This document shows positions 79 through 4,859 of a DNA stretch of 4,859 nt, piece after piece. A program made the translations under genes and the position numbers. The notes under the pieces were generated by a model. It worked only from the letters and a program-made list of their open reading frames with translations. It was not told the DNA's origin and did no database searches. The stretch lies in IMG/VR virus record IMGVR_UViG_2651869785_000017; one strand, written 5' to 3'. Every line of letters begins with the position of its first letter. The stretch's first letter is position 1. The DNA is from a virus. Lineage: Duplodnaviria; Heunggongvirae; Uroviricota; Caudoviricetes.

Positions 79-107
79 GCCCGCGTCTCCCAGCGCGGGC
101 TTTTTTT
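79..107 (+). terminator. Rho-independent terminator (plus-strand orientation)
   Basis: Perfect 7-bp GC-rich stem GCCCGCG (79-85) / CGCGGGC (94-100) with an 8-nt loop, followed directly by T7 (101-107). No U-run on the other strand, so it acts on a plus-strand transcript entering from the left edge. Confidence 0.6.
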
Positions 108-119
108 GTCCATAAGAAA

Positions 120-138
120 GCCCCTCCGGAGAGGGGCT
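120..138 (-). terminator. Candidate terminator hairpin (minus-strand orientation)
   Basis: Perfect 7-bp stem GCCCCTC (120-126) / GAGGGGC (131-137) with tetraloop CGGA. On the minus strand it is followed by UUUCUUAUGG, a weak U tract. Back-to-back with the 79-107 terminator. Confidence 0.35.
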
Positions 139-349
139 GGAGAGTGGCGCTATGTGCCATTGCATGGTGCCGGGTGCCTCCCGGTGAGTTCAGTATCAGC
201 ACCTGAACCCGCACAGAAAGGATAAGGGTCGGTGACAAAACACCAGTTGCTGATTGCCCCTCCGCACAGGGGGATTCACCATGCCAGTTTCTTTTAACAA
301 ACTCCCCGCAAACCAGACAACAGTCAACCGCCTGAATTGTGAGACATTT

Positions 350-373
350 AAAAAAAAGCCCGCAAAAGCGAGC
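350..373 (-). terminator. Rho-independent terminator downstream of the tRNA cluster
   Basis: Minus-strand transcript reads GCUCGC-UUUU-GCGGGC (6-bp stem with one G-U wobble) followed by U8 (plus-strand A run 350-357). It lies 16 nt past the 3' end of the last tRNA. Confidence 0.55.
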
Positions 374-388
374 CAGGGAAAATAAGTG

Positions 389-465
389 TGGCGCGTTCTA
401 CTGTATTCGAACCAGTGACCGATTGCTTAGAAGGCAATTGCTCTGTCCGGCTGAGCTAACAACGC
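389..465 (-). tRNA. tRNA-Arg (anticodon UCU), argO-like, slightly imperfect
   Basis: Hand-folded cloverleaf from the reverse complement: acceptor GCGTTGT/AGAACGC (6 of 7 pairs, G6:G67 mismatch), D stem GCTC/GAGC with GG in the D loop, anticodon stem ATTGC/GCAAT, loop CTTCTAA (anticodon TCT), T arm ACTGG-TTCGAAT-ACAGT (G53:A61 mismatch), discriminator G, CCA encoded. Not run through tRNAscan-SE. Confidence 0.65.
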
Positions 466-481
466 AGGATACAGATAATGA

Positions 482-555
482 ACCGCCTTCGGGGACCCGA
501 ACTCCGCGCAACCAGCTTCGAAGGCTGGCGCTCTTTCCTGATGAGCTAATGGCGG
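482..555 (-). tRNA. tRNA-Arg-like (anticodon UCG as folded by hand), argN-like; possibly degenerate
   Basis: Reverse complement folds as acceptor CCGCCAT/AAGGCGG (6 of 7, A6:A67 mismatch), D stem GCTC/GAGC with loop ATCAGGAAA, anticodon stem CCAGC/GCTGG (perfect), loop CTTCGAA (anticodon TCG), T arm CGGAG-TTCGGGT-CCCCG (one mismatch). The 3' end is followed by TCA, not an encoded CCA. It sits 7 nt after the tRNA-Ile gene. Confidence 0.5.
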
Positions 556-562
556 TATGTAA

Positions 563-638
563 TGGTGGCCCTTGCTGGATTTGAACCAGCGACCTGGCGA
601 TTATGAGTCGCTCGCTCTCACCACTGAGCTAAAGGGCC
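563..638 (-). tRNA. tRNA-Ile (anticodon CAU, lysidine type; ileX/ileZ-like), formally Met/Ile ambiguous
   Basis: Reverse complement GGCCCTTTAGCTCAGTGGTGAGAGCGAGCGACTCATAATCGCCAGGTCGCTGGTTCAAATCCAGCAAGGGCCACCA: acceptor 7 of 7, D stem GCTC/GAGC, anticodon loop CTCATAA, T arm GCTGG-TTCAAAT-CCAGC, CCA encoded. Closely resembles my recollection of E. coli ileX (tRNA-Ile2) and not elongator tRNA-Met. Confidence 0.85.
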
Positions 639-666
639 GAGCCAAAAAATAATAATCAGATGAAAA

Positions 667-1380
667 TCAATAATCAAGCCCTTGCCTGGATACATATCTG
701 TCTGGCGGGAAGCCATAATAGCGGTGAAATACAGAAATAAAGTAGGACCTGCTTGAATAACCGCATTTTTCTGCTATAGCCTGTCCATATCCATGCCGGG
801 AACATAACATATTTACAGCAACACGCATCCGCTCTTCCAGCAACAAGCGACTGAACATGCCCCCTTCATTTTTCAGTTTTGTCTTTAACAAACTCTCACT
901 CATATGCAACTGTAGAGCAATCGCACCAAGCGTCCAGCTTGCTGATATATCTGTCTGAATTATCGCCCTGACTTTGGCACTTATGCTGGATAAACATCCA
1001 CTTAAAAACAATGACATCCGTTCATCTGTTTCAAACAGAGACAGGCAGGCCATCATAAGAAACATATCCGTGGCCTCTCCGGAAAATCCCTGGCTGGTAA
1101 TTAAAGCCGCAGCCAACGCAGGATTGTTGGGTTCCAGCAACAGGTAAAGCGGAATGTCAGTCAGACGAGTCCTCGTCAGCTTATGCTGACTTTCCAGATA
1201 TTGACTTACGACGGATTCGCTTATATCGACAATTTTAACTTTGCCATAATGCATAAGGAAAAGCTCCCTGATGCATTTGGTGGCCAGAACAACTGAGCCT
1301 GGCTTAAGTGACAACGTATCCTTTTCAAGAAAAATATTAATTGGGGAGCAAACCATGATAACTGAACAGACAACAGCCAT
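667..1380 (-). CDS. AraC/XylS-family transcriptional regulator (237 aa as drawn)
   Basis: The C-terminal ~100 aa (approx. 667-970) carry the AraC-type double HTH signature (WTLGAIALQLHMSESLLKTKLK...RMRVAVNMLCSRHGYGQAIAEKCGYSSRSYFISVFHRYYGFPPDRY). The N-terminal part is short for the family. Start is ambiguous: ATG at 1380 has no clear SD, whereas the in-frame ATG at 1254 (MHYGKV..., 195 aa) has a GGGAG SD 9 nt upstream. Confidence 0.85.
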   Translation of the reverse strand: MAVVCSVIMVCSPINIFLEKDTLSLKPGSVVLATKCIRELFLMHYGKVKIVDISESVVSQYLESQHKLTRTRLTDIPLYLLLEPNNPALAAALITSQGFSGEATDMFLMMACLSLFETDERMSLFLSGCLSSISAKVRAIIQTDISASWTLGAIALQLHMSESLLKTKLKNEGGMFSRLLLEERMRVAVNMLCSRHGYGQAIAEKCGYSSRSYFISVFHRYYGFPPDRYVSRQGLDY

Positions 1381-1415
1381 TATAATTTTACTTTCATTAG
1401 CAATTGGTTAGCTCA

Positions 1416-1446
1416 ATTATAGCCCCAAAAGGTAAATTATCATCAA
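1416..1446 (-). promoter_or_regulatory. Candidate sigma70 promoter for the AraC-like gene
   Basis: Minus-strand TTGATG (-35, complement of 1441-1446) and TATAAT (-10, complement of 1416-1421) with a 19-bp spacer, which is longer than optimal. A C7/G7 homopolymer (1475-1481) lies just upstream. Confidence 0.3.
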
Positions 1447-1502
1447 CACATAAGCAAAGGACTGACAGGTGTCGCCCCCCCACCAGCCGCCCATTCACCA
1501 CA

Positions 1503-1528
1503 AATAAAAAGCCTTCAGGACTGAAGGC
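1503..1528 (-). terminator. Rho-independent terminator after the small winged-helix ORF
   Basis: Hairpin GCCTTCAG..CTGAAGGC (1511-1528), overlapping the ORF stop codon, followed on the minus strand by UUUUUAUU (plus-strand 1503-1510). Confidence 0.5.
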
Positions 1529-1712
1529 GTCTGTAACAACCGCACTGATAGTCTGCCAGACCCGCCATAACAAGCTGGGTCAGTATTAACTGGCAGCGTT
1601 CGCGTGAAAGGTAAGTATTCTGCGCAATCTCCCCGACTGTCGCCGGTTCGGTAACGCTTAATTCATCAAACACAACTCTGGCGGTTTCTGTCATATCCTG
1701 CTGTTTCAGCAT
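1515..1712 (-). CDS. Small hypothetical protein (65 aa), possible winged-helix DNA-binding protein (PapI/FaeA-like pattern)
   Basis: Intact ORF with its own downstream terminator and a weak AAGGG SD-like element about 9 nt upstream of the ATG. The segment GEIAQNTYLSRERCQLILTQLVMAGL resembles the recognition-helix region of small wHTH regulators. Composition matches the phage backbone, not the AT-rich cassette. Homology is from memory only. Confidence 0.45.
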   Translation of the reverse strand: MLKQQDMTETARVVFDELSVTEPATVGEIAQNTYLSRERCQLILTQLVMAGLADYQCGCYRRLQS

Positions 1713-1836
1713 GTCTTTTTACCCTTTCCGGTTAACGTGACATACCAATAACTCTTGTCTAAAAAGCCAGCAAGATAAAAAGCCAGTATTCACGACCACC
1801 AGCGTGTTTACTGTACTGCACCAAGTTTACAGGTAC

Positions 1837-1861
1837 AAAAAACCCGCTCAGTGGCGGGTTT
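1837..1861 (-). terminator. Terminator-like hairpin in the divergent intergenic region (stronger on the minus strand)
   Basis: Stem CCCGC (1843-1847) / GCGGG (1854-1858) with loop TCAGTG, flanked by A6 on the left and TTT on the right. The minus-strand transcript gets hairpin plus U6; the plus-strand transcript gets hairpin plus UUUAAGUUGUG. Confidence 0.45.
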
Positions 1862-1931
1862 AAGTTGTGTGGCGAAGTAACCACTCTTAACACAATACAA
1901 TACTTTTTGCGTACGCGTTAGTGTTTTGATA

Positions 1932-1966
1932 GAATTTTCAGCCACATAAAAATTCATTCTTATAAT
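1932..1966 (+). promoter_or_regulatory. Candidate promoter/operator region for the cassette
   Basis: Consensus TATAAT at 1961-1966, 12 bp upstream of the gene-1 ATG, but with no good -35 and no strong SD. A 7-bp inverted repeat GAATTTT (1932-1938) / AAAATTC (1949-1955) with a 10-bp spacer sits where a -35 would be, suggesting an operator or activator-dependent promoter. Confidence 0.25.
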
Positions 1967-1978
1967 TCGGGATATATA

Positions 1979-3154
1979 ATGGATATAACTTGTTTAGAAT
2001 GTGGCAATGTTCTTGACGACCCAACTGTAGCTTGCGATAAATGCGGTGCCACGCCTCATGTTGTAGTGCTGGGCAAACAATCGTACTTTCCTATTGGTGC
2101 TGTAACAGCAAATCTTGAAAAAAATGATTCAAGAGCATTTGATTATCGATTAGGTGAAGTTTGGGATCTAAAAAATGAAGTCACATCTGAATTCATAACC
2201 AGAATTGAGAAAAAATTTAGCCGAAAAAACAAATTTCATAACTTCCTAGACTCAGATCACAACCCTTCATCCATTCCTACGATCCTAAAAAAATACATTA
2301 ATAAAAATAATGAATTCATTGATTTATCTAGAGCTATAATAGAGAAGCTTAAACATAATGCTAATAACGAATCGAGAGTTGCCCAACTTCAGGGGGGGAG
2401 CGTTGTTTTCATCCACTATAAGTCTACCGAACCAGAGGATTTGGGGAAACTTCTAATCGTAATGGTTGATAAACAAAGCGCCTATGACTTTGATTCGGAT
2501 AAGTTGACCCCAACAAGATTAAATCCAATTAATACCGATGCCTTACGGCAGGCTGCGATGTTCGATTTAACTTTATTCGAAGCCAGTTATCCAGAAAACA
2601 AGGGTGACTCATATGTACATTTCTTGCAAGGTAAATCTAAAAGCGATTTTTTCAAAGACTCATTAGGTTGCCGACATGATTCGGACAATAAAAGAAGCAT
2701 TCAGCAATTATTCAGTGCTATAGATATTTTTGCTAGTAAAAACTCACTCGGTCGTGTACTGCGTGATACTATTGACAATGAAGTTAAATCCTTACTGGAA
2801 AAAAAATCAAAAGATAAACACGGAAATAAGTCCGTTAAGATAGAGGATATTTCAAAAATAATTGACTCATGCCTGACTGATTCACACAAATGTAAGGGAA
2901 CGTTTGTCGATTTTGTTAATCTTAATGGTTTCCAGATTGACCCTCAATTTGAACCAACTCCTAAAGCAGCTGAAAGCGCGCTTACAATTGAAGTGGCAGA
3001 TAACGACAATAATTTTAAGTTGAAAATAATGCGTGGAGCTATTGGAGACGAAAAGTCAAATAAGCCTGTAATTCTCACTGACAACAAATGCGAAATTGTG
3101 ATAAAATTGAGTCAGGCAAATTATGATGAACTCAAAAGATATAGAGACAGCTAA
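1979..3154 (+). CDS. Zn-ribbon + NdpA/YejK-like (NA37 family) nucleoid-associated-protein homolog, 391 aa; cassette gene 1
   Basis: Hand-verified translation. Residues 5-22 form a CxxC-x10-CxxC zinc ribbon (CLECGNVLDDPTVACDKC). Residues ~138-228 (GGSVVFIHYKS...LLIVMVDKQ...DLTLFEASYPENKGDSYVHFLQGKSKSDFFKDSLG) align by eye with the conserved core of E. coli YejK (GGFVLFCHY...[23 protein letters not shown]). Strongly AT-rich and K/N/I-rich, unlike the flanking DNA. Confidence 0.8.
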   Translation: MDITCLECGNVLDDPTVACDKCGATPHVVVLGKQSYFPIGAVTANLEKNDSRAFDYRLGEVWDLKNEVTSEFITRIEKKFSRKNKFHNFLDSDHNPSSIPTILKKYINKNNEFIDLSRAIIEKLKHNANNESRVAQLQGGSVVFIHYKSTEPEDLGKLLIVMVDKQSAYDFDSDKLTPTRLNPINTDALRQAAMFDLTLFEASYPENKGDSYVHFLQGKSKSDFFKDSLGCRHDSDNKRSIQQLFSAIDIFASKNSLGRVLRDTIDNEVKSLLEKKSKDKHGNKSVKIEDISKIIDSCLTDSHKCKGTFVDFVNLNGFQIDPQFEPTPKAAESALTIEVADNDNNFKLKIMRGAIGDEKSNKPVILTDNKCEIVIKLSQANYDELKRYRDS

Positions 3155-3156
3155 TA

Positions 3157-4371
3157 ATGACAATTGCTGATGACTTATCAAGATTAGCGCAGATTATTAA
3201 CGGAGCCTCAAGCAGAGTTGAGGGCTACTACACTGTCATAAGTCTTGAAGAAAGCATTGTTATTGTAAATAGTTCTGAAATAATTAGACTGTTACAATCT
3301 ATAGGTTATAAAAAGGCAACAACCTGCATCGAAAATAATGAAATTTGGCTAGATCGCCAAGCTTCATCTTGGGATGACGCTATAATTTATGAGAATGTTG
3401 AGTCTTTTTGGTCTAGAGTAAACACCCAAAACGCTCTTCCGAAAAATTATATCATCGGAACGCCGTTAATACTCCCTACTTCTAAGAATGAAAGCATCGA
3501 AAAAATCCATATTTTCTTTATGTGGAAAGATATCCTTTCATTAATTGCTGATCATCATAACAGTGACTGCTCTGTCTTATTTTTCACCAATGAAGACAAA
3601 AGTTATACAGTCGAACTCACGCATTTTTTACAATATAGCGAGATTAATCGCTTATCGAACTCGTCTCTTAAATATGAAATTATAAAGGAGCTTCTCGACA
3701 CAATAAAAATCAATGATTTACACAAAAGCGAGCGCAAGCTCGTTATACGCTCAGCCATAAACGAAGTATTTAAAGCAAATGGTACGTTCAATTTCTTTGA
3801 CTTGCTTAACTCTACTGAACTCGTCAGGAAAAAATATGATGAACTATATGAGATTTACACAAAGAGGTTTTCTGTAAATAAAATTCTTAACGAACTCGAT
3901 GAGAAAAATCTTGAGTTCACGAGTAAAATTAACGAATTCATATCATCTAATCAGACAAAAGCATTGACTATTCCCGGTGCATTAATAGCTGCTGGTGGCT
4001 TAGTGAAGGCTAATGAAACAACCGAAGCAATATTGATTATCGCAGGACTTTGGATGATAAAAAAAGTCAATTACATTTCTATTGAGATATTCAATGAAAC
4101 ATTCGACAACTTACGTTCTCGAGTGGAGTCCGCTTTCGATAAGTATTTAAAGTTTGAAGAAAATAAAGAAATCAAAGATAATGCAGATAGTATTAAGAGT
4201 AGCATTACAGGTTTGATTGATAAAGCTAAAAAAAGGATGAGAACTGTTAAATATCTCGCATCAGCCATGTTTTATGGAGGCCTTATTTACGTTGGATATA
4301 AACAGTTCCCAGTCTTTTTTGAAAAATCGGCAGTAAATCTATTTTATTTTTTATGCCATACTATAAGCTAA
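3157..4371 (+). CDS. Hypothetical membrane-anchored protein, 404 aa; cassette gene 2
   Basis: ATG lies 2 nt after the gene-1 stop (TAATAATG), so likely translationally coupled. A ~270-aa N-terminal soluble region has no recognisable catalytic motif (no Walker A, HExxH or obvious nuclease motif). Hydrophobic segments at approx. 3964-4020 (ALTIPGALIAAGGLV), 4030-4070 (AILIIAGLWMI) and 4255-4300 (YLASAMFYGGLIYVGY). Same AT-rich composition as gene 1. Confidence 0.75.
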   Translation: MTIADDLSRLAQIINGASSRVEGYYTVISLEESIVIVNSSEIIRLLQSIGYKKATTCIENNEIWLDRQASSWDDAIIYENVESFWSRVNTQNALPKNYIIGTPLILPTSKNESIEKIHIFFMWKDILSLIADHHNSDCSVLFFTNEDKSYTVELTHFLQYSEINRLSNSSLKYEIIKELLDTIKINDLHKSERKLVIRSAINEVFKANGTFNFFDLLNSTELVRKKYDELYEIYTKRFSVNKILNELDEKNLEFTSKINEFISSNQTKALTIPGALIAAGGLVKANETTEAILIIAGLWMIKKVNYISIEIFNETFDNLRSRVESAFDKYLKFEENKEIKDNADSIKSSITGLIDKAKKRMRTVKYLASAMFYGGLIYVGYKQFPVFFEKSAVNLFYFLCHTIS

Positions 4372-4707
4372 CATTGCTAAACAGCCGTCAACAAACCCCA
4401 TTGCAGTTTGCAGTTCCTTCCTAATTGTGCCATCAGAGCATTTTCTCTTCTTCGCAATAGTACGTAATGAGATACCGATAACAAAGTGGGCGATGATGAG
4501 CTCATATTCCTCTGGTTTATACCTTCTCAACCGAGCCACACAACTGTCTATCATGATGCCTTCGTCATCATCACACTGAATCCGTGACTTTTTGCCATGA
4601 GGTAAAAGTCCCTTGAAACCAGCCGCTATCGGCTGCCAGTCCACTCCGCTATTGTCTGAAGCAGCCCAAGCTCCCCAACGATCCATTACTTCATACATAT
4701 CACGCAT
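4351..4707 (-). CDS. Phage antitermination protein Q (Phage_antitermQ family, QuuD-like), 118 aa
   Basis: Translation MRDMYEVMDRWGAWAASDNSGVDWQPIAAGFKGLLPHGKKSRIQCDDDEG...CSDGTIRKEL matches my recollection of the DLP12 QuuD/Q-family pattern (MRD...ERWGAWAA...IAAGFKGL...SR.QC.DDD...CSDG). ATG at 4707 has a GGAG SD 7 nt upstream; the ORF track's extra 5 codons start at an in-frame TTG at 4722. Confidence 0.85.
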   Translation of the reverse strand: MRDMYEVMDRWGAWAASDNSGVDWQPIAAGFKGLLPHGKKSRIQCDDDEGIMIDSCVARLRRYKPEEYELIIAHFVIGISLRTIAKKRKCSDGTIRKELQTAMGFVDGCLAMLAYSMA

Positions 4708-4724
4708 CAACTTTCTCCACAAAA

Positions 4725-4859
4725 TCAGGCCAGCACACCAATTGCCAGCGCACGATCGATAAAACGAAATATCAACTCCAGCTGGGAGCCATACTTCTCT
4801 TCAAATGCCACGGTATCCGCATGCAGCTCGTCGTGATGCTTTCTGCACAAAGGCAACAC
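4725..4859 (-). CDS. C-terminal fragment of a lambdoid nin-region protein (possibly DUF1364/YbcO-like); gene runs off the window edge
   Basis: Open frame to the window edge ending ...LPLCRKHHDELHADTVAFEEKYGSQLELIFRFIDRALAIGVLA with stop at 4725-4727, 17 nt upstream of the Q start codon. The C..HDE motif and its position just before Q resemble YbcO-type proteins; family assignment is from memory only. Confidence 0.45.
   Translation of the reverse strand: MLPLCRKHHDELHADTVAFEEKYGSQLELIFRFIDRALAIGVLA

Follow-up and report, generated by a model that had tools for sequence, protein, structure and literature searches.

Bicistronic anti-phage operons built on nucleoid-associated proteins (NAPs) that resemble YejK have been described under the name PANGU by Li et al. 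(April 2026; bioRxiv 10.64898/2026.04.06.716658), and a two-gene anti-phage system named DS-1 has been reported in the DefensePredictor study of DeWeirdt, Mahoney & Laub (bioRxiv 10.1101/2025.01.08.631726, January 2025; Science 2026, PMC13092281). Here we compare both with a two-gene cassette found on a stretch of 4,859 nucleotides from a virus assigned to the Caudoviricetes (IMG/VR record IMGVR_UViG_2651869785_000017), the whole of which is referred to as the window. Judged from its sequence, this cassette is almost certainly DS-1 itself, a moron that lies antisense immediately past the downstream end of the antiterminator gene Q in a lambdoid prophage, and its genes are accordingly called DS-1A and DS-1B. 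The system is not new: it has already been described, shown by experiment to protect E. coli and annotated in RefSeq.

PANGU systems in the broad sense have a YejK-like NAP whose gene shares an operon with a non-NAP gene at a distance of under 40 bp (10.64898/2026.04.06.716658). In Type I systems the NAP sits non-specifically on long DNA until phage nucleases degrade the chromosome; the NAP thus freed activates a toxSAS effector by binding to its acidic DNA-mimic domain, and a NAP that is dead for DNA binding renders the pair toxic in the absence of phage (10.64898/2026.04.06.716658). The Type II system PANGU-Ecu, from uropathogenic Escherichia coli, consists of the NAP Pag2A and of Pag2B, a protein with N-terminal acidic and C-terminal transmembrane domains. 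Both genes are required and neither is toxic alone; at high multiplicity of infection (MOI) growth is arrested and phage titres fall, as is typical of abortive infection. Infection by T4 takes the NAP off the nucleoid, and the NAP binds the acidic domain at 19 nM (10.64898/2026.04.06.716658).

For DS-1, Table S6 of the DefensePredictor study lists the transcription unit D390 (WP_000150292.1 and WP_000355468.1) as defensive (TRUE) and replicated (PMC13092281). The unit was cloned from a different E. coli strain (NZ_RRVY01000002.1) with its native promoter on a low-copy plasmid, and its effect is given in seven rows of Table S7 as -log efficiency of plating (EOP). The effect was highest for Bas1 (-log EOP 7.6, a drop of >10^7 with a single plaque at the undiluted spot; plaques not smaller), followed by Bas26 (2.7, ~500-fold), Bas3 and T3 (1.7 each, ~50-fold), all three with smaller plaques, and by T5 (1.0, ~10-fold; plaques not smaller) and T7 (0.92, ~10-fold; smaller plaques). 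SECphi27 gave a -log EOP of about 0 and smaller plaques, and none of the D390 rows is for T4, RB69 or lambda. The HHpred call for the NAP protein in Table S8 reads 'YejK / NA37, residues 42-382', while the main text brings up the 'YejK nucleoid-associated domain' solely as a new link to defence (PMC13092281).

Identity of the cassette with DS-1

The two genes of the cassette are adjacent on the plus strand (Table 1), both start with ATG, and they encode proteins of 391 (DS-1A) and 404 (DS-1B) residues. Two nucleotides separate the TAA stop codon of DS-1A from the start codon of DS-1B, which confirms the arrangement given in a preliminary description of this DNA made from the letters alone. No other long open frames were found across the cassette, as the remaining four frames contain 37 to 85 stops and a longest open stretch of 83 codons.

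DS-1A is identical at 391 of 391 residues to WP_000355468.1 as printed in Table S8, and DS-1B is identical to WP_000150292.1 over all 399 residues printed. At the DNA level, the cassette is 100% identical to RefSeq records annotated with these two accessions, for which recent RefSeq names are 'nucleoid-associated anti-phage protein' (DS-1A) and 'anti-phage protein' (DS-1B). The proteins were also compared with the two equivalog models of NCBIfam release 20, which have curated cut-offs: DS-1A scored 451.4 bits against NF053868.1 DS1_1_antiphage (cut-off 330; model positions 3-369 of 369), and DS-1B scored 375.2 bits against NF053869.1 DS1_2_antiphage (cut-off 315; model positions 1-337 of 337). 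All comparable features of the cassette and of D390, i.e. protein sequences, gene order, spacing and scores above both hidden Markov model (HMM) cut-offs, are the same; no difference is detectable, and the prophage backbone around the cassette varies by strain. Neither protein matched PADLOC-DB 2023 (2.0.0) at E <= 1, which is not evidence against a role in defence because DS-1 post-dates that library. The preliminary description had supposed that the pair, one protein binding nucleic acid and the other in the membrane, forms a candidate defence module, and the identity of the pair with DS-1, for which plaque protection has been published, bears this out; the same identity, together with the existence of equivalog models for both genes, overturns its view that the module was undescribed.

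The cassette differs in composition from its surroundings, with a GC content of 0.349 in 1979-4371 versus 0.469 in the flanks (z = -11.9), and is thus as AT-rich as had been noticed at first sight. All other genes of the window lie on the minus strand, antisense to the cassette, and Q and DS-1B are convergent, their 3' ends overlapping by 21 nt (4351-4371). An antisense placement between Q and the tRNA genes had been proposed; the orientation and the direct contact with Q hold, but the cassette is not next to the tRNAs, from which it is separated by an open reading frame (ORF) for a winged-helix protein and by a gene for an AraC-like protein. The beginning of the element had likewise been set at 1863, where a terminator-like hairpin has just ended and no gene starts; DS-1A begins only at 1979.

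Architecture of the two proteins and conservation of the pair

DS-1A belongs to the Pfam family NA37 of YejK nucleoid-associated proteins (E 1.2e-23), the family that the preliminary description had put forward for a profile search. Its AlphaFold2 (AF2) model, with a predicted local distance difference test score (pLDDT) of 83.6, has the fold of E. coli YejK (NdpA, PDB 9be2), which was the sole significant fold match in the PDB (E 1.8e-15) and was also matched by sequence (E 1.2e-9). While fold and Pfam family are shared, the two proteins have about 19% identity, and DS-1A reaches 81 bits on the YejK equivalog model (cut-off 341). Furthermore, YejK is encoded by a standalone housekeeping gene, whereas DS-1A is prophage-borne, has an operon-linked effector gene and carries an added N-terminal zinc ribbon. 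The invariant or near-invariant residues of DS-1A include the basic motifs EKKFxRKNKFH and GKSKSDFFK, and the protein is presumed to be a DNA-bound sensor. Basic residues that are conserved in it are K79, K83, K85, R190, K219, K221 and K226. The zinc-ribbon cysteines are kept in the enterobacterial clade and in a few other homologues (e.g. P0140 and P0161), and the whole segment is missing from Pseudomonas-type homologues; it is for this reason considered an accessory feature.

DS-1B had no match in Pfam, and a sequence search of the PDB was empty even at E <= 10. Its AF2 model (pLDDT 84.8) shows an N-terminal alpha/beta domain followed by helices (Table 1). The N-terminal domain has a net charge of -8 with 13% Asp and Glu, and is negative in 40 of 40 homologues (mean -8.4); it is a candidate docking surface for DS-1A. 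Residues 220-308 form the most conserved stretch of the family, with most of the invariant columns in residues 227-278; they comprise a very conserved long helix (220-269; KYDELYEIYTKRFSVNK..SKINE) and a Gly/Ala-rich hydrophobic helical hairpin (271-308; ALTIPGALIAAGGLV / AILIIAGLWMI). Hydrophobic helices are confined to the C-terminal third of the protein, the highest Kyte-Doolittle mean over 19 residues being 1.56 at residues 291-309, and the length of the C-terminal tail differs among homologues.

Relatives of DS-1B fall into 69 clusters, mostly from Enterobacterales and some from marine gammaproteobacteria, and those of DS-1A into at least 110 clusters. We examined 16 loci encoding DS-1B relatives, two of which were uninformative (one cut by a contig end, the other decayed, in Photorhabdus). 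A gene of the DS-1A family lay directly upstream on the same strand, overlapping or at most 18 nt apart, in all 14 intact loci, two of which (L007 and L016, both from Pseudoteredinibacter) may be one and the same; the identity of DS-1B to the window was as low as 27% in this set (best tblastn segment). The pairing is thus conserved, and the possibility raised beforehand, that the two genes might not occur together in other genomes, is answered by their joint presence at each intact locus. The settings of these loci are those of mobile elements or of defence, with integrases among the neighbours.

Individual loci show distant DS-1 homologues beside a gene for a BstA_C-domain protein in Serratia (L005, 7423-8334), beside an AAA_21 ATPase and AbiEii in Pseudoteredinibacter (L007, 8617-12594) and beside a P4-like D5_N primase in Pectobacterium (L004, 2073-3842). 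A complete DS-1A/DS-1B pair, with a DS-1B 38% identical to that of the window, is further present on a 2.6-kb contig (L011; JAATEZ010000277.1) of a metagenome-assembled genome assigned to Lactobacillales. As all remaining matches are from Gammaproteobacteria, this assignment is probably a binning error and not an occurrence across phyla.

Possible modes of action

The defence function of DS-1 is established, and its mechanism is what we infer here from comparison with characterised systems. Because its layout fits that of Type II PANGU, a PANGU-like mode appears the most likely one for DS-1, and on balance we lean towards it. Both are two-gene anti-phage operons of E. coli in which the gene for a YejK-like NAP is closely followed by that for a protein with a soluble N-terminal domain, only mildly acidic in DS-1B, and with hydrophobic helices towards the C-terminus. 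Set against the description of Pag2B, DS-1B has a soluble part (residues 1-218); its hydrophobic helices, which span 271-308 and 363-403, are borderline as transmembrane segments, and its acidity is modest. DS-1 also has the features of PANGU in the broad sense, a YejK-like NAP and a partner gene 2 nt away. With Type I PANGU (the NAP Pag1A and the GRel toxSAS Pag1B) it shares the YejK-like class of sensor and the bicistronic logic, but the Type I effector is a cytoplasmic alarmone synthetase and not a membrane protein, and DS-1B is without a toxSYNTH domain.

An analogy with lambda RexA/RexB was drawn in the preliminary description, as this is a prophage pair, expressed in the lysogen, of a cytoplasmic sensor of DNA events and a membrane effector; RexA/RexB is located in the immunity region, whereas DS-1 is located in the Q-late region. 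Membership of the RexAB family was rejected, since neither Pfam nor NCBIfam gave a Rex-related match and PADLOC gave no match at E <= 1, on the assumption that PADLOC-DB 2.0.0 contains RexAB models. By this comparison of architectures, Type II PANGU is the closer published precedent for a sensor coupled to a membrane effector.

Transferred to DS-1, the PANGU-like mode would begin in the uninfected lysogen with DS-1A sitting non-specifically on chromosomal DNA, from which it would come free once the host chromosome is degraded or displaced by an incoming phage. Free DS-1A would then bind the mildly acidic N-terminal domain of DS-1B, and the conserved module of helix and hydrophobic hairpin would become activated in the inner membrane. 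The ensuing membrane damage would kill or arrest the cell ahead of phage release, i.e. DS-1 would act by abortive infection. T7 and T3 are known to degrade host DNA. T1-like, T5 and T7/T3 types are among the phages restricted by DS-1, and these include degraders of host DNA. T1 and T5 are named as host-DNA degraders by Li et al. as well (10.64898/2026.04.06.716658).

Several observations weigh against this proposal. The phage ranges are near-complementary: PANGU-Ecu blocks T4 and not T1 or T5, whereas DS-1 acts strongly on a T1-like phage and also on T5 and T7/T3, with no recorded effect on T4. The hydrophobic helices of DS-1B are short and borderline as transmembrane spans, and its N-terminal domain is only mildly acidic and not obviously a DNA mimic. 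Finally, the published experiments on DS-1 are plaque assays only, and the mutated systems shown in Fig. 5 of the DefensePredictor study do not include it (PMC13092281). Differences in expression, i.e. from a native promoter versus induction by isopropyl beta-D-1-thiogalactopyranoside (IPTG), could contribute to the difference in range. The text of the PANGU preprint mentions neither 'DS-1' nor 'DefensePredictor'.

It is conceivable, though rather doubtful in our judgement, that DS-1, with a phage range nearly the reverse of that of PANGU-Ecu, is not a Type II PANGU but an independent pair in which a membrane effector that is unrelated, and reacts to another trigger, is joined to a YejK-like sensor, and, separately, that the antisense slot between Q and the hairpin is an unrecognised defence hotspot whose other cargoes are possibly new anti-phage genes. 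Another possibility is direct sensing, in which DS-1A would recognise, instead of the loss of the host chromosome, a component of the phage (such as incoming linear DNA, a DNA end or a specific phage protein), perhaps through its zinc ribbon, and would then activate DS-1B with an abortive outcome. The range of DS-1 is narrow and uneven and differs from that of PANGU-Ecu, and the gap between the effect on Bas1 (>10^7-fold) and that on the related Bas3 (~50-fold), with none recorded on T4, looks more like the work of a specific trigger than of generic degradation; moreover, the enterobacterial clade has the extra N-terminal ribbon and YejK is without it. However, the Pseudomonas-type homologues keep the same partner gene without having the ribbon, which therefore cannot be the core sensor, and in the only NAP-based systems to have been characterised it is relocation from the nucleoid that is sensed. 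We regard direct sensing as unlikely.

A non-abortive exclusion, comparable to superinfection exclusion, in which DS-1B would anchor DS-1A at the inner membrane so that entering or replicating phage DNA is blocked and the cell survives, seems quite improbable. It would suit the complete loss of Bas1 plating (one plaque, at the undiluted spot) and the pairing, on a prophage, of a putative membrane protein with one that binds DNA, and prophages commonly carry exclusion genes. Yet the related Type II PANGU gave growth arrest at high MOI together with falling titres, the smaller plaques obtained with most of the affected phages fit an effect after entry, and homologues occur next to Abi-type genes in satellites and defence islands. 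That the pair instead has mainly a non-defence role in its native prophage (nucleoid or prophage regulation, or virulence) and that the plaque phenotype is a plasmid artefact is hardly credible: YejK-family proteins are ordinary chromosome proteins, in other lambdoid phages the Q-adjacent slot is home to morons for virulence (stx, for example) and many carrier strains are pathogens (e.g. O104:H4), but defence was replicated with a low-copy plasmid on which the native promoter drove the genes, non-pathogens and marine bacteria also have the pair in their satellites and defence islands, and profile searches of both proteins matched no virulence-related family, so that the virulence or fitness function first considered as an alternative was rejected for want of a supporting match.

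Linkage to Q and the surroundings of the cassette

Among 5,426 complete genomes of E. coli, 106 carried the cassette, all copies being at least 99% identical, and the Q gene lay under the end of the cassette in each of the 107 E. coli records that carry it. The whole window is common to only 20 genomes, O104:H4 strains included. In strain NCCP 13905 the cassette is part of a lambdoid prophage that looks complete, with Q on one side of it and the tRNA-esterase-lysis region on the other. In strain WP2-W18-ESBL-08, the shared block (window 1839-4743, 99.4% identity) consists of Q, DS-1 and the 140 nt upstream as far as the hairpin; it belongs to a DLP12-like prophage, where its immediate neighbour is a lambda-type holin. 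The presence of Q and DS-1 in one shared block across differing prophage backbones indicates that the two move together, and the block travelling with the cassette is bounded on the left by the hairpin. In INPHARED, no phage record carried the cassette, and the flanks alone were matched. On the 316-kb plasmid NZ_CP093857.1 of Klebsiella pneumoniae, a DS-1B gene at 85% identity (86032-87243) adjoins an antiterminator Q gene; this suggests that the linkage between Q and DS-1 reaches past E. coli prophages.

The slot between Q and the hairpin or winged-helix gene (window ~1892-4600) is a variable-cargo site, the cargo of which is always antisense to Q. Besides DS-1, it was seen empty or occupied by three other cargoes (Table 1), none of which had a match in Pfam, NCBIfam or PADLOC.

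Table 1. Positions of the cassette, its parts, its neighbours and other occupants of the slot (window coordinates unless another record is named).
Feature	Position	Strand	Basis or remark
DS-1A gene	1979-3154	+	391 residues
DS-1A N-terminal CxxC...CxxC zinc ribbon, Cys5/Cys8/Cys19/Cys22	1991-2044	+	weak Pfam zinc-ribbon matches, residues 3-24; low model confidence
DS-1B gene	3157-4371	+	404 residues
DS-1B N-terminal alpha/beta domain, residues 1-218	3157-3810	+	AF2 pLDDT about 85-94
DS-1B conserved helix and hydrophobic hairpin, residues 220-308	3814-4080	+	AF2 helices, hydropathy
DS-1B coiled-coil-like helix (310-362), then C-terminal hydrophobic helices (363-403)	4084-4365	+	AF2 secondary structure, hydropathy
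DS-1A upstream/promoter DNA	1863-1978	+	28% GC in 1912-1978
Candidate sigma-70 promoter, TTGATA-16-AAAAAT	1926-1953	+	9/12 matches; tentative
Intrinsic-terminator-like hairpin	1833-1862 (stem 1842-1847/1854-1859, then TTTTTTG)	-	RNA fold -13.8 kcal/mol, z -2.7
DUF968 gene fragment	4725-4859	-	
Antiterminator Q gene	4351-4722 (RefSeq 4351-4707, start 4707)	-	Pfam Phage_antitermQ, E 3e-47
Winged-helix ORF, 65 residues	1515-1712	-	weak TrmB/MarR-like Pfam matches; phrog_331, E 6e-37
AraC-like regulator gene, WP_000301785.1	667-1380	-	phrog_1450 also matched
Three tRNAs	389-638	-	
Empty slot	AR_0013 (L002 3333-3547)		homology to window 89-1911 and 4601-4859
Cargo: ORF of 148 residues	NQ3 (L003 3304-3750)		
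Cargo: overlapping pair of 343 and 179 residues	Stx2a phage WGPS2 (L022 2630-4193)		
Cargo: ORF of 308 residues	mEp460 (mEp460_4F5; L023 2642-3568)		

Upstream of DS-1A, a GGGA lies 6 nt ahead of the ATG. A scan for sigma-70 promoters yielded 13 sites, which is not above shuffled sequences (10.2 +/- 3.5), and the promoter call is tentative. The presence of an AT-rich upstream region and a candidate promoter of its own is consistent with expression of the cassette in the lysogen with no need of phage late transcription. Because the early-right operon, whose transcription continues through Q, runs opposite to the cassette, induction of the prophage would give converging transcription across it. 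A second minus-strand terminator-like hairpin with a T-run was seen at 1803-1782; both hairpins lie downstream of the cassette along Q transcription, and they (1862-1833 and 1803-1782) may be tR'-type terminators of the late leader. A late promoter pR'/qut for this Q allele was sought on the minus strand and was not located.

The short winged-helix ORF adjoins the slot in many lambdoid prophages and is labelled 'TrmB family transcriptional regulator' in O157 genomes. The AraC-like protein had YdeO as its top match in NCBIfam, at 108 bits and far short of the 348-bit cut-off, and GadX and HilD came next. It may have its place among the AraC-like proteins that prophages encode as regulators of acid resistance and virulence (PatE, Psr, AppY class). 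The tRNA at 563-638 (minus strand), with a CAT anticodon, is called Met by ARAGORN and tRNA-Ile by RefSeq in related prophages. Together with two tRNA-Arg it forms a cluster of the ileZ-argN-argO type, so labelled in Stx2a phage WGPS2. Directly downstream of the tRNA cluster, along late transcription, positions 108-313 (minus strand) gave a full-length match to Rfam RF02076, the small RNA STnc100 (143 bits versus a gathering score of 47).

With the preliminary description, a reader who had no tools and only the sequence correctly singled out a defence system that had been validated. PANGU offers a directly testable mechanism for DS-1, yet the texts of the two papers draw no link between the systems, DS-1 being the earlier of the two. 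The difference in phage range suggests that sensors built on NAPs may answer to more than genome degradation of the T4 type, and the Q-adjacent antisense slot holds several unannotated cargoes that are candidates for further defence genes.

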